Virus record (IMG/VR): IMGVR_UViG_2630968705_000016
DNA length: 26,472 nucleotides
From: a virus
Lineage: Duplodnaviria > Heunggongvirae > Uroviricota > Caudoviricetes
Strand: one strand, 5' to 3'
The notes beneath the pieces were generated by a model, which was not told the DNA's origin, searched no databases, and was given only the letters and a program-made list of their open reading frames with translations. Both the position numbers and the translations under genes were made by a program. Shown here one piece after another: positions 1-18,485 of the stretch (positions are counted from its first letter, which is position 1; each line of letters starts with the position of its first letter).

Positions 1-555
1 ATGCTTATTGGCTATGTACGTGTGTCAACAAATGACCAGAACACAGATCTACAACGTAATGCGCTGAACTGTGCAGGATGCGAGCTGATTTTTGAAGACA
101 AAATAAGCGGTACAAAGTCCGAAAGGCCGGGACTGAAAAAACTGCTCAGGACATTATCGGCAGGTGACACTCTGGTTGTCTGGAAGCTGGATCGGCTGGG
201 GCGCAGTATGCGGCATCTTGTCGTGCTGGTGGAGGAACTGCGCGAAAGTGGCGTTAATTTTCGCAGCCTGACGGATGCTATTGATACCAGCACGCCGATG
301 GGGCGTTTTTTCTTTCATGTGATGGGTGCCCTGGCTGAAATGGAACGAGAACTGATTGTTGAACGGACAAAAGCTGGACTGGAGGCCGCTCGGGTGCAGG
401 GGCGAATTGGTGGGCGCCGCCCCAAACTTACACCAGAGGAATGGGCGCAGGCCGGGCGATTAATTGTATCAGGAGTTCCTCGCCAGAAGGTGGCTATTAT
501 CTATGATGTTGGTGTGTCAACTTTGTATAAGCGGTTTCCAGTAGGTGATAAATAG
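1..555 (+). CDS. pin: Serine recombinase, DNA invertase (Pin/Hin/Gin/Cin family)
   Basis: 184-aa ORF from ATG at 1. N-terminus MLIGYVRVSTNDQ with catalytic Ser context, VVWKLDRLGRS and C-terminal HTH (VSTLYKRF) match my recollection of Pin/Hin invertases nearly residue for residue. Confidence 0.9.
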   Translation: MLIGYVRVSTNDQNTDLQRNALNCAGCELIFEDKISGTKSERPGLKKLLRTLSAGDTLVVWKLDRLGRSMRHLVVLVEELRESGVNFRSLTDAIDTSTPMGRFFFHVMGALAEMERELIVERTKAGLEAARVQGRIGGRRPKLTPEEWAQAGRLIVSGVPRQKVAIIYDVGVSTLYKRFPVGDK

Positions 556-820
556 AACTAAAGAAAGTTCATAGGTAGGAGTATGCAATGACATATTGTT
601 TGAAATTTATACTATAAAATTAAACGATTAACAGTTTTATACTATATCAAAGCAGATTCAGGACATTTGAGTAGTGAGATAATCGCTTTATTATAGCATC
701 CATATTATGTCGAACATTGTTGCGAAGCCTCTGTAAGGTTAATGCTTGTTTTTATTATAACTATTTGATATGTTGAGTTTTAGATTGCAATATTAATGTC
801 AGTTTAGCGATAAAGGGGAG

Positions 821-1999
821 TTGATGAACAGTTCAGCATTTGTACTTGAAGATAAGAGAGTTGATTGTCTCTCTGTTATTCACACGACAAAATTATCAGA
901 GTATTTATTATTTGCTGAAAAAGCATATGAAGAGAAAGGTGGCATATATGGTCAAAGGGCTCCTCTTAAAACTAAAACTGCTCAAACTATTCGTGAGAGA
1001 ATGGTATCTGATATAATTGATGGGGCTGTTTTACCTCCAATAGTTATCGGAGTAATTGTTGATAATGATACTTATGAGCTTATTAGAAATGTTCGCGATG
1101 ATAAATCATTTGAAGATTTAAATAAAACTATTGATAAATCGTCTTTATCCATTATAGATGGTATGCAAAGAACTACAGCTTTTTTAGAGGCTGTAAAACA
1201 AAGTGAAGAGGTAAAAAATAAGACAATAAGGATAGAATATTGGTTTTCGAAAAGCATGAATAGCCTGATATACAGAATGTTAGTTCTGAATACAGGCCAA
1301 GTTCCATGGGATATAAAAAGGCAATTAGATACTATTTATGACTCTATAATCAAAGAGTTAAAAGAGTCTATACCTAATTTAGACATCAGACTTATTGGGC
1401 AGTCAAGCAGGAGAACGCAAGCAGGCCAATATCAAAGTAGTAAGTTAATAGAGTATTTTTTGTGTTTTTCATCCAGAAAGACTGACATAGACCTTAAAGA
1501 GAAAGTTTCAGAAGATTTTGCTCGCATGGATGCTATTGAGTCAACCTCAGATAATGACTTTTTATCTAAATTTAAATCAGTGCTTAAATTAATGGTTGAC
1601 TTAGATCATGAGTTTTCAAGATTCAAAGATGAGCAGCAGGAGGGGCGCATCAAAGTCGGTAAGGATATATTTACAAGTATTCCTGCTGGTGTAGGGTTTG
1701 TTGCAGCAGCTGCAACATATATTTATGGCCCTCCAGGATTCAAATCCACTAAAGAAGAAAGTGACAGGTGCTGTCAGGATCTTATTAAAAAAGTCTCTGG
1801 TTTAATTGATAAACTCAAAGATTTAAAGGAAAATGAGTTAGGGCTGTTTTTACAGTTTCCTCTTTTAAATGAAAAGTTGAGTGCCAGATCTAGTAAAATA
1901 GGTCAATATGAAAGGGAGTTTTATTATAAAGCTTTTGAAGCTTGTTTTAAATATATTGAAAGATTAGAAGATTTTGGACCATGTTGGCAGGCTAAGTAA
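821..1999 (+). CDS. Hypothetical protein with DGQHR/DUF262-like (ParB/Srx superfamily) motifs; candidate defence component
   Basis: 392-aa ORF in a strongly AT-rich block. RBS AAGGGGAG upstream (start could be the second ATG at 824). Motifs IYGQRAP, then PPIVIGVIV, then SIIDGMQRTTAF (nt 1157-1171) resemble the QR...DGQ(H/Q)R signature of DndB/DUF262 proteins. Stop overlaps the next start (TAATG at 1997-2001). Confidence 0.7.
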   Translation: MMNSSAFVLEDKRVDCLSVIHTTKLSEYLLFAEKAYEEKGGIYGQRAPLKTKTAQTIRERMVSDIIDGAVLPPIVIGVIVDNDTYELIRNVRDDKSFEDLNKTIDKSSLSIIDGMQRTTAFLEAVKQSEEVKNKTIRIEYWFSKSMNSLIYRMLVLNTGQVPWDIKRQLDTIYDSIIKELKESIPNLDIRLIGQSSRRTQAGQYQSSKLIEYFLCFSSRKTDIDLKEKVSEDFARMDAIESTSDNDFLSKFKSVLKLMVDLDHEFSRFKDEQQEGRIKVGKDIFTSIPAGVGFVAAAATYIYGPPGFKSTKEESDRCCQDLIKKVSGLIDKLKDLKENELGLFLQFPLLNEKLSARSSKIGQYEREFYYKAFEACFKYIERLEDFGPCWQAK

Positions 2000-3105
2000 T
2001 GGCAAGAATTAAAGAAAATATAAACTATATTTTTGATGCTATTTGCCATGCTGGTGGTGAAACTGCAACTAGAAAAAAAATGAAGCCGGCACCAGTGGAA
2101 CAAGAGGAAATGAATTGTTTCAAACGGTTAAAATTTAATAAGGGGGAGTCTTTTAGTATATTTAATGGTATTACTATTGCTCACTTCCAAGAAAATATAA
2201 AAGATGATAATGGTTCTGAAATAATTATTGATTATTTTGCGGTTAAAAATATCGCATCATCTGAATTTCAAAGTGAGCTTTATAACAATTATTTTAGTAT
2301 ATATGACTTAACTGAATCTTTTTTTGTTTTTCTTTGCCCTATTTTAAATTTAAAAGTTAAAGATGATATTTCGTCGCAAACTATTTCTAATGATCTGCTT
2401 TTCCAGCAAGAGGATCCTTTATATATAGGGCATAATATTTCTGAATTGATTAATTATTTTGAATCAATAACTATTTTTCGGTTGGAGGATTTATCTACAA
2501 ATTTTAATAACTCTTTTCTTTCTTGCGCGTATTATATACTTACTAGTTGCGAGACTTTTGTTACATTACCACTATCAAAAGCTACTGTTGATAAATTGAA
2601 AAATCTTTTCGTTTGTAATGAAAAAATTCCACAGGATAATATCTTTTTATCATTGACTTCATCGCATTTAAAGCATTGTTATCTCGAATTGTATAGGTGT
2701 ATTGAATGGTTGTATGTGATTCCTAGAAGCAGGAGATTAAAAGGTGTAATTCAATTCCCAAGGCCAGCATATGAGCTGGCTCTTCATTGTATTGATGAAC
2801 TATCTTGGCGTAGAAAAGAAGAGGATTCTTTAGCAAAAATTGTATCTGACGTATTAAAAAAAAATGAAACGCTAAGTTTTAAGTTGTTGGGATGTAAAAT
2901 GTTTTCTGAAGAAAACCTTAATTTTAATAATGTAGCAAAGCATTTATACGCAATACGAAATCAATTCGTTCATCAACTTGAAGCCAAAAGAGAAAAAGTT
3001 GTTAGTGATGATGATATAATAGATGCAATTGAAATAATTGCAGATATCGTCATTTCTGCATACGAGTTATATGATGCCGATATAATTGAATGGCAATGTA
3101 ATTGA
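1999..3105 (+). CDS. Hypothetical protein with C-terminal HEPN-like Rx4H motif (putative RNase effector)
   Basis: 368-aa ORF translationally coupled to the upstream gene, same AT-rich composition. Motif AIRNQFVH (R-N-x-x-x-H, nt 2956-2973) near the C-terminus fits the HEPN Rx4-6H signature. No other recognisable domain. Confidence 0.65.
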   Translation: MARIKENINYIFDAICHAGGETATRKKMKPAPVEQEEMNCFKRLKFNKGESFSIFNGITIAHFQENIKDDNGSEIIIDYFAVKNIASSEFQSELYNNYFSIYDLTESFFVFLCPILNLKVKDDISSQTISNDLLFQQEDPLYIGHNISELINYFESITIFRLEDLSTNFNNSFLSCAYYILTSCETFVTLPLSKATVDKLKNLFVCNEKIPQDNIFLSLTSSHLKHCYLELYRCIEWLYVIPRSRRLKGVIQFPRPAYELALHCIDELSWRRKEEDSLAKIVSDVLKKNETLSFKLLGCKMFSEENLNFNNVAKHLYAIRNQFVHQLEAKREKVVSDDDIIDAIEIIADIVISAYELYDADIIEWQCN

Positions 3106-3917
3106 ATTTTATATGTTGTGATTAATTAATCATCTAGTCACCCAATGAGTATTACAAAGTATATTTTATGCTGGAATGCAAATTGGGTGAGTTATTATAT
3201 AATGGTGATTGGTCATTAAGTGCTGTAGGGCATATATATTAAAAATAAATATGTCTATTTCTGGAAACTACAAAGTATTGGCAAGGTTTTATTATGCTAA
3301 AGGTGTTATTTTATTATTTTAAAATACCTTAGTGTCCATCGTTTATTTTTATTATAAATCAATCTTAAATTTTACAATGCTGATGTATTGCAATTAAAAA
3401 AATGGCTTAAGCTTATTTTTCTTGTTTTTGATATAAATATTAATGTTGTGTTTTTTTTAAAATAAACATTTAACTCATAACTATTATAGTTAATAAAAAG
3501 AAAATAATATTTTATTATATACTATTGAGTTAGTATTCCGTATTGGCGATTTAATTGAAAGATAACGAAATTCTTCCGCCACCGCTTTGAGTTGCGAGAA
3601 AAGTCATCTATTCGAATGCGTATTATGGAATCATGGTTTCATTAATGGTTATTCAGTAGAGAACCATCTTCATCTGGCACAAAATAACGATAGTTATGAC
3701 TGTCTACATCTCGGAAATATAATAATTTTTAATGCGACTTATTGCGGTTTCCTTTTCATATTACCTTGCAACGATCAGTTTTGTAGCTTATTTCTGCAAT
3801 AAAGTTATTTACAGTTTCGCGGTTTTTCTCTTGCATTTGTTCAGTAAAGCAACTTGCCAGCATACTGGACTGCACCTTAATCAGTTGGACGTCCAACTGA
3901 TTAAGGTGCATTTTTTT

Positions 3918-4399
3918 ATGGCAAAGCCAAAATATTCTCTCGAAACCAGTAATCATTATCTTGCCGGACATAATGGCGCACGTCGTATCGCTGAACGTTT
4001 TGGTGTTGAAGAAACATCAGTGCGACGCTGGGTAAGAGCCAGGCAACTCCACGGTATTGATGGTATTACATTGAAAAATGACCGTCACTCTCCTGAGTTT
4101 CGACTGACGGTTGTCCAGAGGGGTCTGAGTGAAGAACTTACCATGCGCGAGGATGCCGCACGGTTTAATATCTCAAATGAATCCGTTGTTAGGCACTGGG
4201 TGAAGATTTACAAAAACACTGGTGAAGAAGGACTTCTGAACATAAAACCAGGCCGGAGCAAGGACATGACAAAACCTCAAAAACACCTCCACTTACCGAT
4301 GCAGAACTGGAAAAGTTATCTCCCGAAGAACTGCGGACTCAACTCCGTTACCTTCGCGCAGAAAATGCCTATCTAAAAAAGCTGAAGGCCTTAGTTTAA
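3918..4399 (+). pseudogene. IS3-family transposase OrfA, frameshifted
   Basis: Starts MAKPKYSLETSNHYLAGHNGARRIAERFGV (HTH). The expected C-terminus ...ELRTQLRYLRAENAYLKKLKALV is readable only in a different frame from the N-terminal part, implying a frameshift near 4270-4300. Confidence 0.7.
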
Positions 4400-5266
4400 A
4401 GCGAGAAAAACGGGAGAAAGCCCGGATAATCAGTGAATTAAGGCTGAAGCATGCGCTCGGTGATCTTCTGCGTGCCGCGGGGATGTCCCGCAGTACGTGG
4501 TATCACAATATGAATGCCCTGAAGCGAGTGGACAGGCATGCCGGACTGAAAGACAAAAACAGAGAGATTTATCACTATCACAAAGGGCGTTATGGCTACC
4601 GCAGAATCACGCTCTCACTGGGAAACAGGGCTTGTTGGTAAACCATAAAACAGTGTAGCGGCTGATGGCAGAGCTGTCGCTCCGCTCTGTGATAAGGGTG
4701 AAGAAATATCGTTCTTGGAAAGGGGAAGTAGGCAAGGCTGCGCCCAACATCCTGAGCCGGAACTGTGGTGCAACGAAGGCCAACGAAAAATGGGTGACGG
4801 AAGTTACAGAATTCTCGGTACAGGGTAAAAAGCTGTACCTGTCGCCAGTTCTCGATCTGTTTAACCGGGAGATTATCTCCTACAGCCTGTCAGAAAGGCC
4901 GGTGATGTAGATGGTTAATACGATGCTGCACGATGCATTCCCAGTGATCGGCCCGGAGGATGCACTGTTGCTGCACACGGATCAGGGCTGGCAATATCGA
5001 ATGGCAGGCTATCAGGCAAAGTTAAAGGCTAAGGGAATGACACAAAGCATGTCGTGCAAGGGAAACTGCCTGGATAACGCAGTGATGGAGAACTTCTTCG
5101 GCACACTGAAATCGGAGTGTTTTTACCTGAACAGGTTCAGCGATCCAGATTAACTGAGGAAGGCTATAGAGGACTATATCCATTATTATAACAACGAGCG
5201 GATCAGCCTGAAATTAAAAGGCCTGAGTCCGGTAGAATACCGAATCCAGGCCCTGAAAACCGCTTA
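4381..5266 (+). pseudogene. IS3-family transposase OrfB (DDE integrase core), disrupted
   Basis: OrfB-like sequence (…WVTEVTEF…[23 protein letters not shown]…, …LLLHTDQGWQY…CLDNAVMENFFGTLKSE…) is split across frames, with a frame break near 4640 and in-frame stops at 4908-4910 (TAG) and 5151-5153 (TAA). Confidence 0.7.
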
Positions 5267-5438
5267 ATATGAGCTGTCCAACTTTATGGGGCAGTCCATA
5301 AGTGGGCTTCTATGTCACTAAAGAGCTGCGGCTCCTTTGCGTATCCTTTTTTGTCTCCTCACCGTCTGGTCGGTGTCTTACTTAGACTGCTAACTTCTTG
5401 TTTTTATTGGTGTTGTCCTTACACCGTCCAATCATGAT

Positions 5439-5466
5439 TGGTGGAGCTGGCGGGAGTTGAACCCGC
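5439..5466 (-). other. tmRNA (ssrA) 3'-end fragment, likely att-site remnant
   Basis: Minus strand reads GCGGGTTCAACTCCCGCCAGCTCCACCA, matching the 3' terminal 28 nt of E. coli ssrA as I recall it. Flanking sequence does not continue as ssrA. Confidence 0.6.
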
Positions 5467-5767
5467 AGACACGTCGTATGCAAGAACTTGCTGCGGCTGG
5501 ATGGTGGACTTTCGATAGTGCGAGTATTGAATGATTTCCATCTATTATAGATTTTACCGTATTTCGGCATGAATGAAACTGAATATCCTCCCACCGACCC
5601 TCCATGACTTTACACCACTGTCTCTGGGGCTGCTATGTGCCAGTAGAGGACGTTGCTAGTGTCAGCCTATGTTAATCAACAGGGAGCAGGTCACACTGTC
5701 GTCTCAGAATACCTAGCGCATAGGTCACACGAACTTCCAACTGTATTGCTTGTTTTCGTGGCTAAGC

Positions 5768-6907
5768 CTATTTTTGTTGATGATACCAATGCAACATCAT
5801 CCGGAGCTTCAATAGAGTTGTACTGTCATCATCCTCAGAACAAAAATTGTATCGCCCGCCTGAATATTCATTTAACTTGTCCAAGTAAAAGCCACCCATT
5901 GGGTCATATCTATCAGAGTGGAGCCAAGTAAACATTTTCTGAAGAACGTAATGCAGGGCATTTTTCGGAAGTGTTGAAATCAACACGCCATGCTTAGTTG
6001 CTAAATCCTCAATATTCATTTCCTGAAGATTATATCTAATCTCTACTGCAATTGGATGTAGTTTACTTAAAAATACGTCAGCTTCATCCTTGAGATGTGC
6101 CTCTTTAACATTCCCCTCGAACAACTTTATTAACTCTTCCACTTCCATTCGGTAATAATCGTTATCACCTCGCACCGCAACTTCTGAAAGAAGCAACTTT
6201 AACTCAGCATGAATGTTATCAGTAGACGGTATAATCTGTTTGGATAGGGTGCTGTAATGTTTTATACGGATTGCTATTACGGAACCCTTTAGGCTTGTTA
6301 GATATTTATACCTATCTTCAATATATGTAATTAGCTCATCGAATTTAATGCCGAAAATAACATCATCTTTCCCTGGCGTGTTGTTGTAAAGGCTTATAGT
6401 GAAATCATTTTCATTGAAAGCATGAAAATGAGGCCAGCTTGCAAACAGTCGCTCACCATCACTATTTTTAAGATTTGTAGGGTGAGCACCAAAGATAGCT
6501 CGAATACTCTTAAAGTATGCGTCATCATCCTCATGTGAAAGATAGGGCGTTTTATTCTTAAAGACATTCGTTGATTTCTTGAAAGGCCACCTCGCTAACT
6601 TATCATCACTCTCAATGATGCGGTGAAGCTGCTGCAACGCCTCCACAGCAATATCAATAGATGATATAAGGCAGTAAACCTGCATGGCCTTGACATCAAT
6701 ATCTTCCGACAGCTCAGGGAAGTTCATCAGATTGCGAACAGAAACGCTTATCCAATCCATGCACGAACAGATAGGGCTGAACTGGTTTTTACCATTTCTG
6801 TTTATGAAGTAGCTGTAAGCAAACTCCCCTTCATTAACCACATCTCGAAAATCAGTTATTAAAGTATCATCAATAGTTACACCAAAATCTGCCTTGGTCA
6901 TCTTCAT
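5768..6907 (-). CDS. Hypothetical protein (about 379 aa), AT-rich orphan gene
   Basis: Long minus-strand ORF. The six-frame track starts at a TTG (6922); the first ATG is at 6907 and a second at 6901. No clear SD. No domain recognised by eye. Confidence 0.75.
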   Translation of the reverse strand: MKMTKADFGVTIDDTLITDFRDVVNEGEFAYSYFINRNGKNQFSPICSCMDWISVSVRNLMNFPELSEDIDVKAMQVYCLISSIDIAVEALQQLHRIIESDDKLARWPFKKSTNVFKNKTPYLSHEDDDAYFKSIRAIFGAHPTNLKNSDGERLFASWPHFHAFNENDFTISLYNNTPGKDDVIFGIKFDELITYIEDRYKYLTSLKGSVIAIRIKHYSTLSKQIIPSTDNIHAELKLLLSEVAVRGDNDYYRMEVEELIKLFEGNVKEAHLKDEADVFLSKLHPIAVEIRYNLQEMNIEDLATKHGVLISTLPKNALHYVLQKMFTWLHSDRYDPMGGFYLDKLNEYSGGRYNFCSEDDDSTTLLKLRMMLHWYHQQK

Positions 6908-7301
6908 GGAAATCACTTTCAAATCAGCACACTTAGAGGTTGATTGTGACCGTTATCATAGGCAAAAACAATTCAGTAGGTTGACCAGCCCCCCCCCATA
7001 ACGCAAAATTGCTCGATTTAAGTATGCATTCCAACTTCCGCTCCTCGCTCATAACAGACATTCACTACAGTTATGGTAGAAGGTATGCATGCTGGGTGGG
7101 GAAAGTATGAAGGAAAAGAAGGCTGCTGTGTCGTTTGACATCACTGCAATCTTCTTATTGGTTATGCGGGTCGTAGTGGGACAAAACTGAGACACATAAG
7201 GCCTAGCAATGGCTTGCAAGGCTTTACATGTTTTGATGTGGTGGGACTTGTGAGCGCAGTGTTGATGGGGTAATGCTTTGAATTAGAAGCGGATTCTTAT
7301 A

Positions 7302-7347
7302 ATTCGTAATGCGAAGGTCGTAGGTTCGACTCCTATTATCGGCACCA
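7302..7347 (+). other. Partial tRNA-Thr(CGU) (thrW-like) 3' portion; integrase att core
   Basis: ATTCGTAATGCGAAGGTCGTAGGTTCGACTCCTATTATCGGCACCA matches the anticodon loop through the CCA end of E. coli tRNA-Thr(CGU). The 5' half (GCCGATATAGCTCAG...) is absent upstream. Confidence 0.7.
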
Positions 7348-7364
7348 TTCAAACATCTCCCCAA

Positions 7365-7450
7365 GTCTACTAAAGTCTTTCAAAACCCCTTATAATCCGC
7401 GTATTAAAGCCCCGTTCGTCTTTTGACGTCTACTAAAGTCCCTCAAAATC
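7365..7450 (+). promoter_or_regulatory. Two direct repeats (GTCTACTAAAGTCyyTCAAAA), putative integrase arm-type binding sites
   Basis: Near-identical 21-23 bp copies at 7365-7386 and 7428-7450, between the tRNA fragment and the integrase start. Confidence 0.4.
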
Positions 7451-7512
7451 TACGGTCAGATGGGGGTACTTATGGGGGTATTTGCTGTTCGGTTTAGTGG
7501 AGGTACCCCCAA

Positions 7513-8727
7513 GTGAAACTCAATGCCCGTCAAATAGACACAGCCAAGCCAAAAGAGAAGGCTTACAAGCTGGCCGATGGTGGCGGTTTGTATCTCTTGG
7601 TAAAACCTAATGGAGGTAAATACTGGCGACTTAAATATCGTGTAGCTGGTAAAGAGAAGCTATTGGCACTAGGTGTGTATCCTGAGGTTACTCTAGCCGA
7701 TGCTCGGGCAAAACGAGAAGATGCGAAAAGAGGTATCGCTGGTGGTATCGATCCGATGGAAGCGAAACGAGAGGAAAAGATTGCCCGGGAAACGCAGTTA
7801 AACAACACCTTCAAAGATATTGCCCTTGAGTGGCACAGCAGCAAATTAAAAAAATGGTCTGCTGGTTATGCTTCAGACATCCTCGAAGCCTTCAACAAAG
7901 ATGTGTTCCCTTACATTGGCAAAAAACCAATCGCCGAAATCAAACCACTTGAACTTCTGAATGTGCTGCGGCGCATCGAGGGGCGCGGTGCGACAGAAAA
8001 AGCCAAAAAAGTGAGGCAGCGGTGCGGGGAAGTTTTCCGTTATGCAATAGTCACTGGTCGCGCAGAGTATAACCCTGCACCAGACCTTACTAGCGCGATG
8101 CAAGGCCATGAATCTAATCATTACCCTTTCCTTACGACCAAAGAATTACCTGATTTTTTCAAGGCATTGTCCAGTTACTCAGGAAGCGCATTGGTTGTTA
8201 TGGCGGCTCGTCTACTGATTATCACCGGCTTGCGAACTGGCGAACTACGTGGCGCATTATGGGATGAAATTGATTTCAACAAGGCTATATGGGAGATACC
8301 CGCTTCACGTATGAAAATGCGGCGGCCTCATATTGTGCCATTGTCTGAGCAGGCTCTTTCGCTTATTGGGAAGATTAGAGAAATAACAGGCAATTACCCT
8401 CTTATGTTTCCCGGGCGCAATGATCCAAGGAAAACAATGAGTGAGGCCAGCATAAACCAAGTGTTTAAGCGCATTGGCTACGCTGGACGTGTAACTGGTC
8501 ATGGGTTCCGACACACTATGAGCACGATTTTGCATGAGCAGGGCTATAACACCGCGTGGATAGAAACGCAGCTCGCTCACGTTGATAAGAACTCAATTCG
8601 TGGCACATACAACCATGCGCAATATCTGGATGGACGGCGGGAGATGCTTCAATGGTATGCCGACTATATGGATTCTCTCGAGCATGGCGGAAATGTGGTG
8701 CATATGGTGTTTGAAAAACACGCATGA
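7513..8727 (+). CDS. int: Tyrosine recombinase, P4-type phage integrase
   Basis: 404 aa, GTG start with GGAGG RBS. N-terminal signature (KLNARQIDTAKPKEK...DGGGLYLLVKPNGGKYWRLKYR) typical of P4-family integrases. Catalytic elements GLRTGELR, HGFRHT and RGTYNHA (R, HxxR, Y) present. Confidence 0.93.
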   Translation: MKLNARQIDTAKPKEKAYKLADGGGLYLLVKPNGGKYWRLKYRVAGKEKLLALGVYPEVTLADARAKREDAKRGIAGGIDPMEAKREEKIARETQLNNTFKDIALEWHSSKLKKWSAGYASDILEAFNKDVFPYIGKKPIAEIKPLELLNVLRRIEGRGATEKAKKVRQRCGEVFRYAIVTGRAEYNPAPDLTSAMQGHESNHYPFLTTKELPDFFKALSSYSGSALVVMAARLLIITGLRTGELRGALWDEIDFNKAIWEIPASRMKMRRPHIVPLSEQALSLIGKIREITGNYPLMFPGRNDPRKTMSEASINQVFKRIGYAGRVTGHGFRHTMSTILHEQGYNTAWIETQLAHVDKNSIRGTYNHAQYLDGRREMLQWYADYMDSLEHGGNVVHMVFEKHA

Positions 8728-9154
8728 AACAACTGGACAAGTATACAGAGGTTTACTAAAGTATAGGGGAGTAGATTGATAAAAACTCACAGAGGATTGC
8801 TATTTAACAGTTAGCCCTGGAGAAGGGCAATCGCTCTTTTATAAACGAAGGTGTATTGAGCCTTCTACGCTGCTGAAAAGCGGAATGTTCTTTAACAGGC
8901 TTTGGCGCTGACAAAGCGCAATTGTTCTTTAAAACTACTGGATGTCACGCCTAATAGCGTGATCCTGCCGAAATGCAGGGTAGCTCTACCCTTGTGGAGC
9001 AAACAAACCAAAACAATCTGACTATCTTTTATAAAAGACCGCAATATGTTTTTCATATTGTGGTCTTTGGCGTATTCGACATTTGACGCAAATAAAACTC
9101 TCGCCATTCGTTGCAGGAGGGGGTTATTGCGTCATTAGTACAGGATATTAATAA

Positions 9155-9358
9155 ATGGCTAATTACAATTCATTAATTCGTCTCTCTGAAGTTCAAAGGC
9201 GAACTGGTTATAGCAAAGCATGGATTTATCGTCTTATTAGTCAGGGGAGGTTCCCTAAACAGGTAAAAATTGGAAGTCGGGCAATTGCTTTTGTTGAGTC
9301 TGAAATAGATGAATGGATTGAGAAGTGTATATTAGAATCTAGAGACGAGGTGGCCTGA
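9155..9358 (+). CDS. alpA: AlpA-family transcriptional regulator / excisionase-like protein
   Basis: 67 aa; IRLSEVQRRTGYSKAWIYRLISQGRFPKQVKIG...ESEIDEWI matches the AlpA/Vis HTH pattern. Confidence 0.85.
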   Translation: MANYNSLIRLSEVQRRTGYSKAWIYRLISQGRFPKQVKIGSRAIAFVESEIDEWIEKCILESRDEVA

Positions 9359-9789
9359 TGGAAAAGAAAAACCGCCCATTACAGGCGGCTAATTCAGATA
9401 TTCGCGTATCTGATGTTACGCCCCTGACAAAATCCCTTCAAGCACCAAAGCGCACACCGAAAAAGCATCGTGCCAGAGTCTATATGCTGCGTACTGGTAT
9501 AGAGGGATGGACAGAAAATGACATTCTTCGCTACTGCCGTCTGTCTTCTGGTCGTAACTATGCAACAGAGTTAGAACGCCAGCTTGGAATCACTCTGGAG
9601 CGTATCGACGAAAAGAATCCTGATGGTATCGGAACACACCTTCGCTACCGTTTCTCCTGCCGTGGTGATGTTCTGAAAGTGATCACTCATGTTAACCATC
9701 TTGCGAACATAAATGATCACAACGGACTTTCTCAGCAGGAAATTGCCGACATTCTGAAACTCTACCCGAACGCGTTTAACGCCGCCTAA
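9358..9789 (+). CDS. Hypothetical phage-island protein
   Basis: 143-aa ORF whose ATG overlaps the alpA stop by 1 nt; no domain recognised. Confidence 0.65.
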   Translation: MEKKNRPLQAANSDIRVSDVTPLTKSLQAPKRTPKKHRARVYMLRTGIEGWTENDILRYCRLSSGRNYATELERQLGITLERIDEKNPDGIGTHLRYRFSCRGDVLKVITHVNHLANINDHNGLSQQEIADILKLYPNAFNAA

Positions 9790-9801
9790 CGGAGACTGAA
9801 A

Positions 9802-10635
9802 ATGAACATCGAAAAAAGCAGATTAATTTCTGAGGCCGCCCCTCATCTGAACGCCTCTCTGGGCACAATTAACGGTAATGAATTTGCCGCAATTGTCCCG
9901 GTTATTCCTGGTCATATCGGTGGGCGTGAAACCAATATTGTTAGCGCAAAAGCGTTACACAAAGCGTTGGGCGTGGGAAAAGACTTCTCTACATGGATCA
10001 CTGATCGCATCTCTGAATATGACTTCACCATTGGGCACGATTACTCAGTCCATAAAACAATTTCCCCAAATTTGGGGAAAAGCCCGAATGACGCGGCTTA
10101 CAGCAAGATTAAGCAGTCTGGCAGACCCGGCAAAGACTATCTGTTAAGTGTCGGAATGGCGAAAGAACTGGCAATGATCGAACGCAATGATCAGGGGCGC
10201 GCTATCCGCCGTTATTTCATCCAGTGCGAGGAAGAATTACAGCGTAGCGTGCCTGAAATCGCCGCCCGCTATCGTCGCCAGCTAAAAGCCCGTATCAGTG
10301 CCGCAAACAACTTTAAGCCAATGTGCGATGCGCTGAATATGGCCCGTGCCGAGATGGGTAAAACGACGCAGCAACACCACTACACAAACGAGAGCAATAT
10401 GATTTCTCGTATCGTTCTTGGTGGGCTAACTGCTAAACAGTGGGCGCGGATAAATGGCTATTCTGGCGAACCTCGCGACCATATGAACGCAGAACAGCTT
10501 GAGCACCTCTCATATCTCGAAAGCACCAATATCACGTTAATTGATATGGGCATGGAATATGAGCAGCGCAAAGGAGAACTCACCCGCCTGTCGCAACGCT
10601 GGCTCGCCAAGCGTCTGGAGGCGGTCCATGTTTAA
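9802..10635 (+). CDS. Phage antirepressor-like protein (KilAC-type C-terminal domain)
   Basis: 277 aa, GGAGA RBS. The segment DYLLSVGMAKELAMIERNDQGRAIRRYFIQCEE resembles the KilAC antirepressor domain. Confidence 0.8.
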   Translation: MNIEKSRLISEAAPHLNASLGTINGNEFAAIVPVIPGHIGGRETNIVSAKALHKALGVGKDFSTWITDRISEYDFTIGHDYSVHKTISPNLGKSPNDAAYSKIKQSGRPGKDYLLSVGMAKELAMIERNDQGRAIRRYFIQCEEELQRSVPEIAARYRRQLKARISAANNFKPMCDALNMARAEMGKTTQQHHYTNESNMISRIVLGGLTAKQWARINGYSGEPRDHMNAEQLEHLSYLESTNITLIDMGMEYEQRKGELTRLSQRWLAKRLEAVHV

Positions 10636-10807
10636 GCCGACAGGAACACCACAACCTCAAAAACGCTACAAAGATGCCCACGGAGCACTCGTTACTGTCG
10701 AAAGCGTGTCTCACAACCGAGTGACGTTTTATCGCGACGGGTATCAATCGCCATGCGTACAACCGCTGGCGCGTTTCATGAAGGAGTTCGCGGAGGTTAA
10801 CCAATGA
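10628..10807 (+). CDS. Small hypothetical protein (59 aa), possibly DUF4222-like
   Basis: ATG at 10628 overlaps the upstream stop (ATGTTTAA). Sequence MFKPTGTPQPQKRYKDAHGALVTVESVSHNRVTFYRDGYQSPCVQPLARFMKEFAEV. Confidence 0.45.
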   Translation: MFKPTGTPQPQKRYKDAHGALVTVESVSHNRVTFYRDGYQSPCVQPLARFMKEFAEVNQ

Positions 10808-11241
10808 TACCCATCCAGAAGAAGACATTTTCACTGGCTGGTATGTCGCCAAAATCCAGAAATATGACGGCAAAGTCAGGCATTAATACAGCAGATACAA
10901 GCAAAGTTTATCATTTGCTGGTGGCCGGAACGGATGCCTTAACCATACCAGAAATCTCGGGCGATGATATTAGCCTTGAGAAGGTCAGCGGCTGCGCCAG
11001 AAAATTTCTGGTCGTAGATGATGTCTTCCGCTCGTGTAGTGACTCCACAAAAACATTCGTCCACGCGCGTGACGTTAACGAAATGAGCGCGATGTACTGT
11101 GCTTCTGGTTCTTCCAATAGTGAGTTTTCGGAGTCCATAAAAAAGAGCTTGCCGTTATGCGGCAACACGGTTTATGGTTATAAGGCACCTCATAAAACGG
11201 GTGCCGGGTTTCGCAGCCCGGAAATGTACGAGGCGACACAT

Positions 11242-11263
11242 GACGCGCCGAGCGTCTTTTTTT
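11242..11263 (+). terminator. Rho-independent terminator-like hairpin plus T7 run
   Basis: GACGC-GCCGA-GCGTC hairpin (11242-11256) followed by TTTTTTT (11257-11263). Lies inside the annotated 355-aa ORF 10804-11871. Confidence 0.5.
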
Positions 11264-11465
11264 GTGCCGTTAGCCAGACTCACACTTTTTTCAGTGATGT
11301 GGTTATAATCCGCGTCGCTTGCAAAATTATGGTGGGCTGGACAGGGCAGCCGAAAGGCTGGCCGGTTTCCTTGTACGCCGGTACTGCGAACTCTGTTCAG
11401 TCCACCACCAGCGAGTTTCGCAGCTCCGGTGGTGGGAAGAATTCCCAGTACAAGGAGGCTGCCAC

Positions 11466-11660
11466 ATGCTGGCTACTACCCCTACCCAAAAACCGCAATT
11501 TATCTGGATTATCGCCGCAGTTCGCCGCGATTGCCCGACAATTACCGCCAAAATTCATCATATTGCTGCCGAGTCTGAACGCGATGCTCGCCGTTCTCTG
11601 GTGCGCGATCACGTCTGCTTTTTTGCTGGTCGTATCCGCATGGAGGTGGCACATGATTAA
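11466..11660 (+). CDS. Small hypothetical protein (64 aa)
   Basis: ATG preceded by AAGGAGG RBS; codon usage (ctg, gcc, cgc) is much more gene-like than the overlapping frame of the long ORF. MLATTPTQKPQFIWIIAAVRRDCPTITAKIHH... Confidence 0.55.
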   Translation: MLATTPTQKPQFIWIIAAVRRDCPTITAKIHHIAAESERDARRSLVRDHVCFFAGRIRMEVAHD

Positions 11661-11871
11661 AACCTACGATGTGCATATGGATCCCCTCGAACGCACAAGC
11701 CAGATCATCACACTGACAGAAGTGATTAACGACATTCTGGTGAGCAACTCTCCCTCACGAGACGAAAGACTGAAGGCGTTACTCGCGATATTGGATCTCG
11801 CCGTTCGTGACGTTCATTTCCTGCTGGAAGGTGGCGAAATGCCAGGAAAAACGGGGGCAACCAATGAATAA
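11655..11871 (+). CDS. Small hypothetical protein (72 aa)
   Basis: Internal ATG of the long ORF with GGAGGTGG RBS; overlaps the upstream stop (ATGATTAA). MIKTYDVHMDPLERTSQIITLTEVINDIL... Confidence 0.5.
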
Positions 11872-12058
11872 CTCAATTAATGCCCCTCGACTTACGTCCG
11901 CACTTCAATTAATCGAGCAAGCAGCGGCTGTCCTGGTTGCTGTCAGTCTTTCGGCTGAAGAAATGGACGCTGCTGATGTCGTGGATGCGATTAAAGCGTG
12001 CTCATCTTTGGTTAACGATGCTCGTGCAGAGCTGGTAATTCTTGGTGGTGAAAAATGA
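11864..12058 (+). CDS. Small hypothetical protein (64 aa)
   Basis: ATG at 11864 overlapping the upstream stop; MNNSINAPRLTSALQLIEQAAAVLVAV... The track ORF begins further upstream at 11807. Confidence 0.5.
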   Translation: MNNSINAPRLTSALQLIEQAAAVLVAVSLSAEEMDAADVVDAIKACSSLVNDARAELVILGGEK

Positions 12059-12318
12059 ATATCAACTTAATTTATCGTCATCCGTGTGAGCTGGAAATTG
12101 AATCATTGCTGAGCCGTGAAGAGCCATATCCAGACACATTCACTCTTGCAGATCGCACGACTGAACGGCTTACCAGGGCGCGCACAGGTCTGGTTCATGT
12201 GATGAATGAGATTCTTCCATCGGTGGGAGGGGAACAGGCGACAGTAATCACTAGCTGGCTACAAAAAGTTACCTCTCTGATAGATATCAGTTTAATCGAT
12301 GCGGAGAGTGCGAAATGA
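12055..12318 (+). CDS. Small hypothetical protein (87 aa)
   Basis: Start overlaps upstream stop (ATGA); part of a coupled run of small genes. Confidence 0.55.
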   Translation: MNINLIYRHPCELEIESLLSREEPYPDTFTLADRTTERLTRARTGLVHVMNEILPSVGGEQATVITSWLQKVTSLIDISLIDAESAK

Positions 12319-12536
12319 CCAACATCCAGCTCATTGAAGCACAATGTCGCATCGAACAGGTTCAGACTGTTTTAGGGTTCTGGCTTGAAGGGGCCAGCCC
12401 CAGCAACAGAGACAAGTTAATGATTGGCGCGGTTATGTCACTGCTCAATGGCGTACCAGAAGCTATTCAGGAAGCAGACGAATTGTTGGGCAAATATGAG
12501 TTACAGAATCATTCAGGCGAGGCGAAACATGAATAA
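12315..12536 (+). CDS. Small hypothetical protein (73 aa)
   Basis: ATGA overlap with the upstream gene; same operon. Confidence 0.55.
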   Translation: MTNIQLIEAQCRIEQVQTVLGFWLEGASPSNRDKLMIGAVMSLLNGVPEAIQEADELLGKYELQNHSGEAKHE

Positions 12537-13131
12537 TTTCTTAACTTTCCATGCAGAAGCAACGCCTGACGGCGTAAACATCATGTACCGCAGCAACGAT
12601 GGCATGACAGAACGCGTTGAGGCCGTCTCATATATTGATGCCGTAAATCGTCTGGATGCCGGGGATTATGACGATAAACCAGATGAAGGTATGTCAATAC
12701 ATCTCGCTATAGCCGATGGCGGCAACCAGGGATATTTCGATTACACATCACAGCATAACGTCATTATGTGGAGATGGCTGATCGCAACAGTATTCATGCT
12801 GGAAATGAGAGAGGAAAACGGCACTGTCAGCATCATTGATGATACTGGCAACCCTTCCGAAGTGGCTGTTTATTCCAACGGCATCGTCGCCATGCCGCTG
12901 TATCCAGTAGCAGAGCGCCTCGCTATGGCAAACAACATTGAGGGCGCGATGATAGAACGTTTTGGCATCGAGTCTGGCACAGAACGCGCCATCATTTTCT
13001 ACAGAGCCATGATGGATGTGGAACAAGGAGCACTGACTCCATTTGGTCGTGAAACGCTTGCTGAACTTCACAACAGCTTTATAGCTGAACTGAATGAAAA
13101 CGGCATGCCAGCGGAACCAGTGACGCACTGA
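12526..13131 (+). CDS. Hypothetical protein (201 aa)
   Basis: ATG at 12526 overlapping the upstream stop (ATGAATAA). The track ORF begins upstream at 12424, but that would overlap the previous gene out of frame. Confidence 0.6.
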   Translation, partial: NMNNFLTFHAEATPDGVNIMYRSNDGMTERVEAVSYIDAVNRLDAGDYDDKPDEGMSIHLAIADGGNQGYFDYTSQHNVIMWRWLIATVFMLEMREENGTVSIIDDTGNPSEVAVYSNGIVAMPLYPVAERLAMANNIEGAMIERFGIESGTERAIIFYRAMMDVEQGALTPFGRETLAELHNSFIAELNENGMPAEPVTH

Positions 13132-13141
13132 GGATGGAACC

Positions 13142-13483
13142 ATGATTACTAAAAATTTCCGACTGAATGCGCTGGCAAATAAGTATGCGTCGGCACTGTA
13201 TAACCACATTACCTCCACCAGCGGCGGGGACTATTTCATGGTTGATGCGGACGGCGAGGCCGTCCGTGTGGAAATCGTCAATGGAGTAAAAGGCGTTCGC
13301 AGCCTGATCGATAGCTACACACTGGCAGCCATGAAAGTGTTCTACCCGCAGTGGGAAACCGTGGGGATCGAGCTTCTTGATCGTTGCGTCACTAAGGACG
13401 GATTGACTGACGTCGGGCGTGAGATATGGCAAAGCATGGTTAATGACATGGGCGCAACTGTAGCGGGAGGTTCTCATGCGTGA
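13142..13483 (+). CDS. Hypothetical protein (113 aa)
   Basis: ORF with GAGGATGG context upstream; the stop overlaps the next start. Confidence 0.6.
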   Translation: MITKNFRLNALANKYASALYNHITSTSGGDYFMVDADGEAVRVEIVNGVKGVRSLIDSYTLAAMKVFYPQWETVGIELLDRCVTKDGLTDVGREIWQSMVNDMGATVAGGSHA

Positions 13484-13847
13484 AAATGCAGAAATGGCGC
13501 TTAGCTCCGCAATCGGAGAGCAGGTGGCAAAGATTGCTGGTGCTGTGTGGATTCATAACCTTCATTCTACTGGTGAAGAGAAAATGGCAATTCAGACGCC
13601 AGAGGGACGCATCATTACTACATCTCTGAAGCCGTCAGATGTTTGTGATCTGATTTGCGCATTCATGTACCCAGCAATGAGGACTGCCCACGGCGATAAG
13701 TGGAAACTTGCGACAACCGCTGAATTTGATATGTGGCTAAACAATGATGGCATGCTGACTGATTACGGAATAACCAAGTGGCAGATGCTGGTTAGCCATA
13801 TCGCAAACGCTATAGACCACGTGGGGTACGGTGATGCGAAACATTGA
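13476..13847 (+). CDS. Hypothetical protein (123 aa)
   Basis: ORF with GGGAGG RBS upstream; 3' end overlaps the primase start. Confidence 0.6.
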   Translation: MRENAEMALSSAIGEQVAKIAGAVWIHNLHSTGEEKMAIQTPEGRIITTSLKPSDVCDLICAFMYPAMRTAHGDKWKLATTAEFDMWLNNDGMLTDYGITKWQMLVSHIANAIDHVGYGDAKH

Positions 13848-16590
13848 TCTTATCCGTCAGGTTATCAGTGCGTCTGAAAACAACTGGCCTCATGTGCTGG
13901 GCTGCCTGAACATAAATGTCCCTGACTCTCCGCGCCGTCATGCTCCCTGCCCTGCATGTGGGGGCAAAGATCGATTCCGGTTCGATGACAACGGGCGCGG
14001 TAGCTTCATCTGTAATCAGTGCGGCGCTGGTGATGGGCTGGATTTAATTAAACGCGTAAATAACTGCGACACAACAGAGGCGGCGCTTCTTGCCGCTGAT
14101 GTTCTGGGTATTGATTACCGGACAACGGAAACACCAGAAGCCACCAGCCAGAAACGGGAACAACTGGAAACCGAGCGCCAGCGACGCGAACAGGAGCGCC
14201 TGAAAAGGGCAGAGAAGGACGAACAACAAAGACGGGATACGTTTTCCCGTCAGTTTGATGACATGCGCAGAAAGGCTGTAAACGGCAAATCTGATTATCT
14301 GGTTGCGAAAGTGGTAGGTGATTTTACATTCCCCGTGTTGCCCGATGGATCTCTGTTGCTGGCGCTGGTGGATAAATCCGGCGCAGTCACAGCAGCACAG
14401 ACTATTACCTCACATGGTGAAAAAAGACTCCTGACAGGTTCAGCAAAGCGGGGGGCATATCACGCCATAAACGCACCAGAAACAACACAGAGCATCTTAA
14501 TCGCAGAAGGGCTGGCAACGGCATTATCTGCCCATTTAATTCGTCCAGAGGCGCTGACAGTGGCGGCGATTGATGCCGGGAACCTGTTATATGTCGCCCA
14601 GGTACTGCGGGATAAATATCCTTCAGCACAAATCATCATTGCTGCGGATAACGACCACAGCGAAGGAAGACAAAACACGGGGAGAATAGCAGCAGAAAAA
14701 GCAGCTTTATCTGTTTCTGGATGGGTGGCATTACCCCCGACAGATCACAAAGCAGACTGGAATGATTACCACCAAAAACACGGCATTAAATGCGCCACAG
14801 AAGCGTTCAATAAGTCAATGTACCAACCACAGGGTAATGGCGTGAAACAGGAGCCACAGACCATTGAGGGAAGCGATTTTAAGGTTATGGATACCGACCC
14901 ACTGAAACCAAGAATAGAAAGCCGCGAGGATGGTATTTATTGGGTATCTCCGAGAGCTGACAGCCAGAGTGGAGAAATCATCAATAACGAAAGCTGGTTA
15001 TGTTCTCCGTTAAGCGTTATCGGTACTGGCAGAGACGATAAAGACCAGTATCTCATTCTTCGCTGGCTGTCGTTTGGTTCTGAAACGCCGACAACCGCTG
15101 CCATTCCACTGGCTGATATTGGTGAACGTGAAGGATGGCGCACACTTAAAGCTGGTGGGGTAAATGTCACGACCAAAAGCAGCCTCAGAGCAATACTGGC
15201 AGACTGGCTACAACGCAGTGGCTCTCGTGAATTGTGGCGTGTTGCTCATGCCACTGGCTGGCAATGCGGAGCGTACATCATGCCTGATGGGGAAATCATC
15301 GGAACACCTGAAAATCCTGTGCTGTTCAGCGGGAGAAGCTCAGCCGCAGCCGGATATACCGTCTCAGGGAGCGCGAAAAGCTGGCGTGATAACGTGGCGC
15401 GTCTGGCCTTTGGTAACTATTCAATGATGACCGGGATCGGCGCAGCACTGGCAGCGCCATTGATTGGGCTGGTGGGCGCTGACGGGTTCGGCATTCATTT
15501 CTATGAGCAGTCGAGCGCAGGTAAGACCACCACGGCAAACGTGGCGAGCAGCTTATACGGCAACCCTGATTTACTGCGGCTGACGTGGTACGGAACCGCG
15601 CTGGGGCTGGCAAATGAGGCCGCCGCCCACAATGACGGACTAATGCCGCTTGATGAAGTTGGTCAGGGCGCTGATCCTGTCAGCGTTTCACAGTCTGCCT
15701 ATGCGTTATTTAACGGTGTAGGGAAACTGCAAGGCGCTAAAGATGGTGGAAACCGGGATCTAAAACGTTGGCGTACAGTGGCAATCAGCACCGGAGAAAT
15801 GGATTTAGAAACATTTATCGCTACTTCCGGGCGAAAAACCAAAGCCGGGCAACTGGTGCGACTGCTGAATATTCCGTTGAGTAAAGCAGTACGCTTTCAC
15901 GATTACCAGAACGGAAAACAGCACGCAGACGCACTGAAAGACGCTTACCAGCATCACCACGGCGCGTCCGGGCGTGAGTGGATTAAATGGCTGGCAGACC
16001 ACCAGCAACAGGCTATTAAAACCGTTCGTGATTGCGAAAGCAGATGGAGAAGCCTGATCCCATCCGATTATGGTGAGCAGGTTCACCGTGTAGCCGCGCG
16101 ATTTGCCATTCTGGAGGCCGCATTGTTGTTAGGCGAGGTTGTAACAGGCTGGGATGCTCAGACATGCCGTGATGCGATACAGCACAGCTATAACGCATGG
16201 TTGCGTGAGTTCGGCACAGGTAACAAAGAGCATCAGCAGATTATTGAACAAACGGAGGCATTTCTTAATGCCTATGGGCTTAGCCGTTTTGCACCATTTT
16301 CATACAGCCCGGCAGATTTGCCCATCAAAGATTTAGCCGGATACCGTCAGCGTGGAGAACATGACGAAAGCCCAATGATTTTCTACACATTCCCGGCCAC
16401 ATTTGAAAAGGAGATCGCATGTGGTTTCAACGCAAAACAGTTTGCTGAAGTGTTGAAAAAAGCCGGGATGCTAACCCCACCAAACAGCGGTCGTGGATAC
16501 CAAAGAAAATCACCACGTATTCAGGGACGACAAATAAACGTTTATGTACTCAATTACCAGCCAGGAGATTATAACTCATCTGAAGAATGA
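13831..16590 (+). CDS. Primase-helicase (P4 alpha-like: zinc ribbon + Toprim primase + P-loop helicase)
   Basis: 919 aa. CPACGG...FICNQCG zinc-binding motif; Toprim-like AEGLATA and IIIAADNDHSEG (DxD); Walker A SSAGKTTT and Walker B-like LMPLDEV. Start could be the GTG at 13831 or the ATG at 13834. Confidence 0.9.
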   Translation: MMRNIDLIRQVISASENNWPHVLGCLNINVPDSPRRHAPCPACGGKDRFRFDDNGRGSFICNQCGAGDGLDLIKRVNNCDTTEAALLAADVLGIDYRTTETPEATSQKREQLETERQRREQERLKRAEKDEQQRRDTFSRQFDDMRRKAVNGKSDYLVAKVVGDFTFPVLPDGSLLLALVDKSGAVTAAQTITSHGEKRLLTGSAKRGAYHAINAPETTQSILIAEGLATALSAHLIRPEALTVAAIDAGNLLYVAQVLRDKYPSAQIIIAADNDHSEGRQNTGRIAAEKAALSVSGWVALPPTDHKADWNDYHQKHGIKCATEAFNKSMYQPQGNGVKQEPQTIEGSDFKVMDTDPLKPRIESREDGIYWVSPRADSQSGEIINNESWLCSPLSVIGTGRDDKDQYLILRWLSFGSETPTTAAIPLADIGEREGWRTLKAGGVNVTTKSSLRAILADWLQRSGSRELWRVAHATGWQCGAYIMPDGEIIGTPENPVLFSGRSSAAAGYTVSGSAKSWRDNVARLAFGNYSMMTGIGAALAAPLIGLVGADGFGIHFYEQSSAGKTTTANVASSLYGNPDLLRLTWYGTALGLANEAAAHNDGLMPLDEVGQGADPVSVSQSAYALFNGVGKLQGAKDGGNRDLKRWRTVAISTGEMDLETFIATSGRKTKAGQLVRLLNIPLSKAVRFHDYQNGKQHADALKDAYQHHHGASGREWIKWLADHQQQAIKTVRDCESRWRSLIPSDYGEQVHRVAARFAILEAALLLGEVVTGWDAQTCRDAIQHSYNAWLREFGTGNKEHQQIIEQTEAFLNAYGLSRFAPFSYSPADLPIKDLAGYRQRGEHDESPMIFYTFPATFEKEIACGFNAKQFAEVLKKAGMLTPPNSGRGYQRKSPRIQGRQINVYVLNYQPGDYNSSEE

Positions 16591-17352: not shown

Positions 17353-17814
17353 ATGGAACTAAAATTTATTGATAACCCTGTGCGATTACAGGCCTTTCTT
17401 AACGAGCCAGGCAATACCGAAAATATTGTTGAGCCGGGGCACACGTACTACATCAAGCCTGATGCGGTATATCTCGGCATCTACGAAGGATTAGTGCTGG
17501 CTGGCGTTCATGAAGTGCGTAACTTCTGGCATAGCGTTGTTGAATGCCATGCGGTGTACGACCCCGGATTCCGTGGTGAATATGCACTGCAAGGGCATCG
17601 ATTATTCTGCAAATGGCTTCTCGAAAACTCACCATTCCTTAACAGCATTACCATGGTTCCTGACACCACCAAATACGGACGGGCAATTATCCGTTTGCTT
17701 GGCGCTACCCGTGTTGGTCACCTTGATGATGCTTATATCAGATGTGGTAAACCCGTCGGCGTAACGCTTTATCAGTTAACTCGGCAACAATATAAGGAAT
17801 TCAGCGAATGTTAA
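17353..17814 (+). CDS. Hypothetical protein (153 aa), first gene of the ejection-like cassette
   Basis: ORF coupled to the downstream gene (ATGTTAA overlap); no domain recognised. Confidence 0.7.
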   Translation: MELKFIDNPVRLQAFLNEPGNTENIVEPGHTYYIKPDAVYLGIYEGLVLAGVHEVRNFWHSVVECHAVYDPGFRGEYALQGHRLFCKWLLENSPFLNSITMVPDTTKYGRAIIRLLGATRVGHLDDAYIRCGKPVGVTLYQLTRQQYKEFSEC

Positions 17815-18485
17815 TTACCCACATAGCTCATAAACATCTCAATCGTGCCGTATACGAAAAAGGCGGTGATGGTGGTGCCTCTAAAGCTCAGGCGAAGGCC
17901 CAGCAGCAGGCAATTGATTTGCAGCGCGAGCAGTGGAATACGGTGATGAATAATCTCAAGCCGTATGCAGAAGTCGGATTGCCTGCTTTACAACAACTAC
18001 AAGGACTGATGACTCTGGAAGGGCAGAATAAAGCCGCGAATGATTTCTTTGGTTCTGGTTTATATAAAACACAGGCAGATCAGGCCCGTTATCAGAACCT
18101 TGTCTCAGCAGAAGCTACCGGGGGGCTTGGCTCAACAGCTACCAGTAACCAGTTATCTTCCATTGCGCCCATGCTTTATAACAATTGGCTCAGTGGGCAA
18201 ATGCAAAATTATGGAAACCTGCTAAATGTCGGGATGAATGCGGCATCAGGGCAGGCAACGGCAGGGCAAAACTACGCCAATAATACCGGACAACTCTTGC
18301 AGGGGCTTGGCGCTATTCGTGCAGGTCAGGCGCAGCAGCCATCCAGTCTTGCGCGTGGTATTGGTGGGGCAGCATCAGGCGCTTTAGCGGGTGCGCAACT
18401 TGGTTCCGTTGTTCCTGGAATAGGAACTGCGGCCGGCGCTATTGGTGGTGGGCTTATTGGTCTTGTTGGGGGGCTTGGATTCTAA
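17808..18485 (+). CDS. Hypothetical protein with glycine-zipper-like C-terminus (225 aa), internal-virion/ejection-like
   Basis: Q/A/N/G-rich; C-terminal GIGGAASGALAGAQLGSVVPGIGTAAGAIGGGLIGLVGGLGF suggests a membrane-inserting glycine zipper. Coupled to flanking genes. Confidence 0.75.
   Translation: MLITHIAHKHLNRAVYEKGGDGGASKAQAKAQQQAIDLQREQWNTVMNNLKPYAEVGLPALQQLQGLMTLEGQNKAANDFFGSGLYKTQADQARYQNLVSAEATGGLGSTATSNQLSSIAPMLYNNWLSGQMQNYGNLLNVGMNAASGQATAGQNYANNTGQLLQGLGAIRAGQAQQPSSLARGIGGAASGALAGAQLGSVVPGIGTAAGAIGGGLIGLVGGLGF

Follow-up and report, generated by a model that had tools for sequence, protein, structure and literature searches.

Anticodon nucleases of the PrrC/RloC type are encoded between hsdS and hsdR of type I restriction–modification (R-M) operons, and genes that interrupt such operons are often themselves defence genes, as TgvAB and the Rlo genes illustrate (PMC11411939). 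Genes beside small serine recombinases are likewise often defence genes (PMC13552941), and prophages and satellites carry defence genes in variable hotspots, such as P2 old/tin and P4 (PMC9122126). The HEPN abortive-infection (Abi) proteins AbiD/AbiF (Abi_2), AbiV, AbiU2, DS-11, and DS-38 are each the product of a single mobile gene of ~350-380 aa, and have a helical N-terminal domain with an Arg...His pair. In HEPN proteins, the motif spans the last part of core helix 3 and the beginning of the loop after it, and helices 2 and 3 are separated by an insert (PMC3710099).

The gene described here, which encodes a 379-aa protein, shares features with all of these systems. Homologues occupy the same hsdS–hsdR slot as PrrC/RloC, and the family protein has a possible Rx4-6H-type RNase site and is presumably latent. 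Unlike PrrC/RloC, the family lacks an N-terminal ABC/P-loop NTPase domain (by Pfam and NCBIfam, and in a model that is helical with a small sheet), similarity to PrrC/RloC in sequence or fold is not detectable, and the gene stands alone in a prophage, with no hsd gene in the DNA analysed. The single mobile gene, the helical N-terminal domain, and the Arg...His pair recall the HEPN Abi proteins; the family differs from them in having no Pfam or PADLOC match, no hhalign match to DS-38, Ala or Ser after the Arg, and a β insert after the Rx5H motif. TgvAB is a two-gene DNA-targeting system of unrelated proteins. The slot beside the Pin invertase, which holds Dazbog, RnlAB, or our gene depending on the strain, resembles the known prophage and satellite hotspots and serine-recombinase cargo sites, but is located beside attR in a thrW prophage that is lambdoid/Mu-tailed.

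The gene lies in a 26,472-nt stretch of DNA (hereafter, the window) from a virus of the Caudoviricetes. The features around it are:

1..555, plus strand: Pin-type small serine invertase, start of the variable cargo at the prophage right end
821..3105, plus strand: Dazbog defence system (DzbA 821-1999, DzbB 1999-3105)
3732..5267, plus strand: degraded IS3-family element between Dazbog and the gene module
5302..5438, minus strand: DNA normally found 3' of ssrA in most E. coli (88-94% identity)
5439..5466, minus strand: 28-nt 3' end of ssrA (tmRNA), an exact match and putative att-core relic
5467..5767, no strand: downstream non-coding segment, from the stop codon to the ssrA core
5768..6907, minus strand: the gene (379 aa, ORF call), cargo of the prophage
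6908..7301, no strand: upstream non-coding region of the gene
6989..6997, no strand: C9 tract (G9 when read along the gene), 82-90 nt 5' of the start codon
7302..7347, plus strand: exact 46-nt 3' end of tRNA-Thr (thrW), tRNA positions 31-76, annotated as thrW elsewhere
7513..8727, plus strand: P4-type tyrosine integrase of the adjacent satellite (ORF call, annotated relatives)

Window positions 1-7357 match the genome of E. coli 2017.20.01CC (NZ_AP027865) at 99.6%, where they form the right end of a complete prophage of ~42 kb. At the left end of this prophage, the integrase abuts an intact thrW (tRNA-Thr) beside proA. Regulatory, lysis, head, and tail genes, tail fibres, and Pin follow, and then two 'hypothetical' genes (Dazbog), the dead IS3, the gene, and the 46-nt thrW fragment. 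Beyond the fragment lie a LysR-type pseudogene and paoD. The gene is the last before attR of an otherwise complete prophage, the position of attR-proximal cargo (a moron). In phage phi458, described as a spontaneously induced prophage of avian pathogenic E. coli (APEC), the 1.9-kb module alone (window 5463-7357, 99.5-99.7% identity) lies beside a truncated pin gene. The prophage gene order in 2017.20.01CC and the phi458 module therefore identify the gene as attR-proximal prophage cargo.

The gene belongs to the thrW prophage on the left, not to the integrase-bearing P4-like satellite on the right. The thrW fragment at 7302..7347 is both the attR of the gene-carrying prophage and the attachment site that the satellite used, and the integrase at 7513..8727 is part of this different element and has no functional tie to the gene. 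The first-pass annotation placed the gene, as an isolated orphan, between two att remnants directly upstream of the integrase. Both remnants are exact (28 nt of the ssrA 3' end and 46 nt of the tRNA-Thr 3' end) and the integrase does adjoin, but the gene is neither isolated nor part of the island of the integrase: in the neighbouring prophage it lies closest to attR, with Dazbog 2.7 kb away.

The remainder of the variable end and the adjacent elements were also annotated. PADLOC matches both Dazbog genes (DzbA, E 1.6e-54; DzbB, E 1.3e-7). DzbA has 392 aa. DzbB has 368 aa, contains an RNxxxH motif, and matches HEPN_Apea weakly. The system is complete and directly follows the Pin invertase, and RefSeq labels both genes only as hypothetical. 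In another E. coli strain, the slot from Pin to the gene holds an IS2 and an RnlA/RnlB toxin–antitoxin pair instead. On the right, elements lie in tandem at thrW. The P4-like satellite spans 7348-16590, with the integrase, AlpA, an antirepressor, and a DUF927 primase; the stretch 17353-22521 carries genes for P22-type DNA-ejection proteins, as judged by identity to an annotated locus (L001). Inside the satellite, at 11185-11412, a full-length Rfam isrK (69 bits) and a C4 antisense RNA (81 bits) overlap an ORF annotated as 'ash family protein', and a weak c4-a1b1 target site lies at 11172-11224.

On the other side of the gene, window 5302-5466 comprises the last 28 nt of ssrA and ~137 nt of ssrA-downstream DNA, at 88-94% identity to nearly all E. 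coli. The 28-nt match is expected zero times in shuffled sequences, and Rfam detects 17 nt of the fragment. With the ssrA core and the downstream DNA in this order, the module would therefore carry a fossil attR-type junction of an ssrA-integrating element, now apparently enclosed in the thrW prophage. The segment between this core and the stop codon (5467..5767) belongs to the ~1.9-kb module that is shared with phi458. ARAGORN and Rfam find no complete tRNA or tmRNA in the window.

The ORF spans 5768..6922 on the minus strand and encodes 384 aa from a TTG; if the ATG at 6907 is used, the product has 379 aa. An identical CDS of 1140 nt is annotated as 'hypothetical protein' in other E. coli genomes (RefSeq). 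The gene is AT-rich, as the first-pass annotation stated, with a GC content of 38.6% against 45.4% for the whole window and ~0.47-0.54 (as a fraction) for the satellite DNA on the right. Its product is a soluble, acidic protein of 44 kDa (pI 5.5) with no transmembrane or signal peptide-like segment. The maximum hydropathy of 1.32 rules out a transmembrane or membrane-disrupting Abi protein.

The early statement that the protein has no recognisable domain holds. Searches of the 379-aa protein against Pfam, NCBIfam, PADLOC, and PHROGs return only noise, and none of the system HMMs of PADLOC-DB v2 matches at E<=10. A profile search of PDB sequences gives a single match, haemagglutinin HA2 (E 0.017), which we dismiss as spurious.

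The non-coding region upstream of the gene (6908..7301) accompanies it in every E. coli and phage copy. A simple promoter scan gives no convincing sigma-70 match on the coding strand of this region. Within it, the length of the C tract varies among otherwise near-identical copies (7, 8, or 9), and the tract is interrupted in phi458, which reads CCCTCCCC at this position. The window has C9, eight other E. coli copies have C8, and two have C7; both C7 copies carry an IS1 just downstream of the stop codon of the gene. The tract could be a slipped-strand expression switch, or its variation could be a homopolymer sequencing error. Next to the gene, no Rfam RNA and no tandem repeats are found, and an RNA antitoxin or repeat array beside it is ruled out on this basis.

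The gene is a member of a rare but widely transferred family. Close homologues number 128 (E down to 1e-250), nearly all of 360-385 aa and all unnamed, and an exhaustive profile search with clustering at 50% recovers 681 representatives at E<=1e-3, including 223 with an E-value below 1e-30. With one genome per species, 75 loci are found among 185,579 species. The carriers include Gammaproteobacteria, Campylobacterota, Bacillota, Spirochaetota, Lentisphaerota, Kiritimatiellia, Fusobacteriota, and Mycoplasmatota. The gene itself is present in 48 of the 5426 complete E. coli genomes and occurs in prophages of both APEC and enterotoxigenic E. coli (ETEC). The family is found on 33 plasmids, 25 of them conjugative, and on >1000 contigs as mcr-1 IncX4 and other conjugative plasmids of Enterobacteria. 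Comparison with a 72%-identical copy gives a dN/dS of 0.127. The family is a conserved and selected single gene that moves horizontally and is rare and patchy in distribution. In at least five records of a single pig-associated strain set (E. coli Res13-Lact/Res13-Sevr, H61-H65), the last 303 nt of the gene are all that is left, indicating that it was lost by deletion in that lineage.

Neighbourhoods of homologues combine defence and mobile contexts in many lineages. In Paraclostridium (L013-15), the gene is embedded in a type I R-M operon in the order hsdM-hsdS-gene-hsdR, with gaps of 12 and 20 nt. Type I R-M genes also adjoin or enclose the homologue at L009, L057, L076, L094, and L096, and in the last two the homologue is inside the operon. 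At two of the type I R-M-associated loci, GmrSD lies directly upstream, a further likeness to TgvAB and the Rlo genes. Clostridia homologues follow a YhcG/DUF1016 nuclease. Two type II R-M systems accompany the Aliarcobacter homologue in an integrase island, and the Leptospiraceae homologue adjoins ParE, an AAA_15/DUF3226 pair, and an MjaI R-M system. An SXT-like ICE has its homologue in a variable region, flanked by traN and by ssb/bet/exo and preceded by a gene for Endonuclease I. One homologue is located in a P4-like satellite, and on the IncX4 mcr-1 plasmid pEC111 another has AbiH and PIN genes as neighbours and the replication gene at a distance of ~4 kb. Of the species-level loci, about one in three encodes a tyrosine or serine recombinase within 10 kb.

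In P2-like prophages, a 72%-identical paralogue is flanked by ogr and gpD, with some 0.9 kb left to the end of the prophage, at a site other than the P2 hotspot described earlier, gpA-gpQ (Rousset 2022, PMC9122126). The paralogue is represented by E. fergusonii (L101, 9001-10155) and an E. coli cluster (that of P0007), on >400 contigs. A record titled Vagococcus sp. WN89Y (L024) has an enterobacterial P2-like paralogue by gpD and sheath genes; this enterobacterial content suggests contamination or mislabelling of the assembly.

The neighbours of the family are diverse. When 149 neighbours are compared with Pfam and PADLOC and counted by family, mad3, AriA, GmrSD, PDC-S02, and HEC-06 appear, together with housekeeping genes, and some loci, such as those in Photobacterium and Proteus, are surrounded by ordinary genes. 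Clustering of the four neighbours on each side at about 80 loci reveals no shared partner gene. The family therefore acts as a single gene, and the clustering also rules out a conserved operon partner, DUF6037 being found upstream in Proteus only. A defence setting of homologues, for which the first-pass annotation proposed to look, is seen in many lineages and absent at some loci. Neither a housekeeping or metabolic family nor a core-genome context, which would speak against the defence reading, turns up.

The AlphaFold model, built on a 43-sequence alignment, is confident (pLDDT 90.8, pTM 0.83). The predicted fold is helical with a small three-stranded sheet at residues 153-187. A Foldseek search of the model against the PDB gives a best E of 0.22, all matches being GPCR-like bundles, and thus no convincing solved relative. 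The N-terminal core (residues 41-145) has a mean pairwise identity of 56%, compared with 34-37% for the C-terminal helical half. Across 51 divergent sequences (the 43-sequence alignment and eight divergent members), only W52, D128, F132, R136, and H142 are invariant.

R136 and H142 form an R-x5-H pair that falls within the Rx4-6H pattern of HEPN RNases and is invariant in all 51 sequences. In the model, the pair is also placed as in HEPN domains: helix 128-141 ends at G140-A141-H142-P143, and a loop (99-127) precedes it. D85 and E89 in helix 70-98 are nearly invariant, in an ExxxQ context as against the Ex3[KR] of HEPN helix 2. The residue right after the Arg is Ala or Ser at position 137, not the polar N/D/H of HEPN proteins. 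Pfam matches no HEPN, Abi, or other family in any of the 43 aligned members, PADLOC matches none in the window protein, and hhalign gives a probability of <1% against both the HEPN region of DS-38 and DzbB. DS-38 ('HEP2', 366 aa) was tried as a relative on account of its length and is unrelated in sequence. With Ala or Ser after the Arg and no HEPN profile or protein aligning, a HEPN-like RNase is therefore a guess and not a classification. It is the best mechanistic guess available from the model, and we put it forward tentatively, as possible rather than probable.

The gene has been singled out before by prediction. DefensePredictor (Science 2026) lists in its Table S5 WP_000784327.1, the allele most frequent in E. 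coli (identity to the window protein >=99.5%), with a mean log-odds of 8.17 at a cut-off of 4, and in its Table S10 the plasmid homologue WP_001459672.1, with a log-odds of 12.36. Both are labelled there 'Predicted novel defense gene', WP_000784327.1 is given without an HHblits or Foldseek match to known defence proteins, and 45% of the units tested in that work are stated to have been validated. Neither accession is in Table S6 of cloned units, parts 1-2 of the three parts of Table S6 hold no entry of matching length, and the family motifs are absent from the supplementary sequences of DefensePredictor and of a second machine-learning discovery paper. Literature searches for the family accessions, DUF6037, and phi458 return no functional data.

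We infer that the gene probably protects the lysogen against other phages, which makes it a single-gene defence candidate. The fuller description, of a moron carried as accessory cargo beside attR in a temperate thrW prophage and encoding a lone anti-phage protein of the abortive-infection or effector type, has in our estimation about an even chance of being right. The suggestion of anti-phage cargo made by the first-pass annotation thus survives, in light of the defence and mobile contexts, including type I R-M operons, and the log-odds of 8.17; its placement with the integrase does not. The defence reading is plausible but unproven.

As to the mechanism, the N-terminal helical domain may possibly be a latent metal-independent nuclease with a HEPN-like R136/H142 site, a proposal that draws on the predicted structure and that we hold with some doubt. 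R136 and H142 at the helix end, with D128, D85/E89, and W52 nearby, would form a site like that of HEPN RNases. The faster-evolving C-terminal helical half would sense infection or keep the enzyme inactive. Homologues embedded between hsdS and hsdR would back up the restriction system in the manner of PrrC.

Other accounts fit part of the evidence. The family protein could be a non-enzymatic sensor or adaptor, with the killing nuclease provided by a neighbour or a fusion partner. In several lineages, the gene immediately upstream, in the same orientation, encodes a nuclease (Endonuclease I in the ICE loci, YhcG/DUF1016 with its PD-(D/E)xK fold in Clostridia, and GmrSD), and 623-aa proteins fuse the family to an abundant, unannotated N-terminal domain of ~245 aa, whose 'DPDNGLEVK' may, by our own reading, be a PD..ExK-like motif. 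A second fusion, a 609-aa member from Lentisphaeraceae (L084/P0233), carries a C-terminal DUF6577 (E 6.5e-37); HMMs iterated on the fusion domains were dropped because they drifted via the fusion proteins. Neither fold nor profile searches confirm a catalytic domain. The fusions and upstream nuclease genes keep the sensor or adaptor account alive. It is unlikely all the same: such a partner is missing at most loci, among them the window, the P2-like paralogue, and the plasmid copy, and the invariant R/H/D set looks catalytic. An accessory gene that is small, AT-rich, and fast-moving and is carried by phages, conjugative plasmids, ICEs, and satellites might also serve these elements in counter-defence or competition with one another, for example as an anti-restriction factor. 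Against this very unlikely alternative, the chromosomal slot between hsdS and hsdR would be odd for an anti-restriction gene, and the pEC111 copy is near AbiH/PIN and the replication gene, not near transfer genes. DNA-mimic inhibitors are typically small, unlike a protein of 379 aa with enzyme-like invariant residues.

The mobile-element location and the possible nuclease site would also suit the toxin of an addiction module that mainly stabilises its carrier, with a small unannotated ORF or RNA as antitoxin, and RnlAB and ParE modules do neighbour the family at some loci. Yet no adjacent ORF is conserved at about 80 loci, neither tandem repeats nor an Rfam RNA accompany the gene, and the upstream regions differ among paralogue contexts, so that we consider a toxin–antitoxin system highly improbable. 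An accessory role outside phage conflict, for example in lysogenic conversion, regulation, or structure, would be consistent with the ordinary genes around some homologues and with the reported effect of the phi458 prophage on biofilm formation and virulence. We give such a role equally little credence, as unrelated elements repeatedly carry the family in their defence hotspots, R-M operons enclose it, the defence log-odds are high, and the protein has no signal peptide-like or membrane segment.

Returning to a lone anti-phage protein, a bolder form of this reading would make the family the founder of an unrecognised catalytic defence fold: a self-contained latent nuclease with no known sensor or NTPase module, which is passed among prophages, satellites, ICEs, and plasmids and has repeatedly been inserted into type I R-M operons, where it would stand guard as PrrC does, its expression in E. 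coli perhaps being switched by the G tract. We rate this proposal as rather unlikely.

The family is one among about a thousand predicted E. coli defence clusters, and is set apart by its R-M-embedded relatives, its carriage on mcr-1 plasmids, and the absence of a structural relative. Being small and having clear candidate catalytic residues, the protein lends itself to testing. If the gene defends, it would add a single-gene system with no recognisable domain or structural relative, and systems of this kind tend to yield new sensing or killing chemistry. Carriage on mcr-1 IncX4 and conjugative plasmids and in APEC and ETEC prophages means that the family could affect the host range of phage therapy. 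The recurrence of homologues in the slot of PrrC would provide a second, unrelated family in which to study the guarding of restriction systems.
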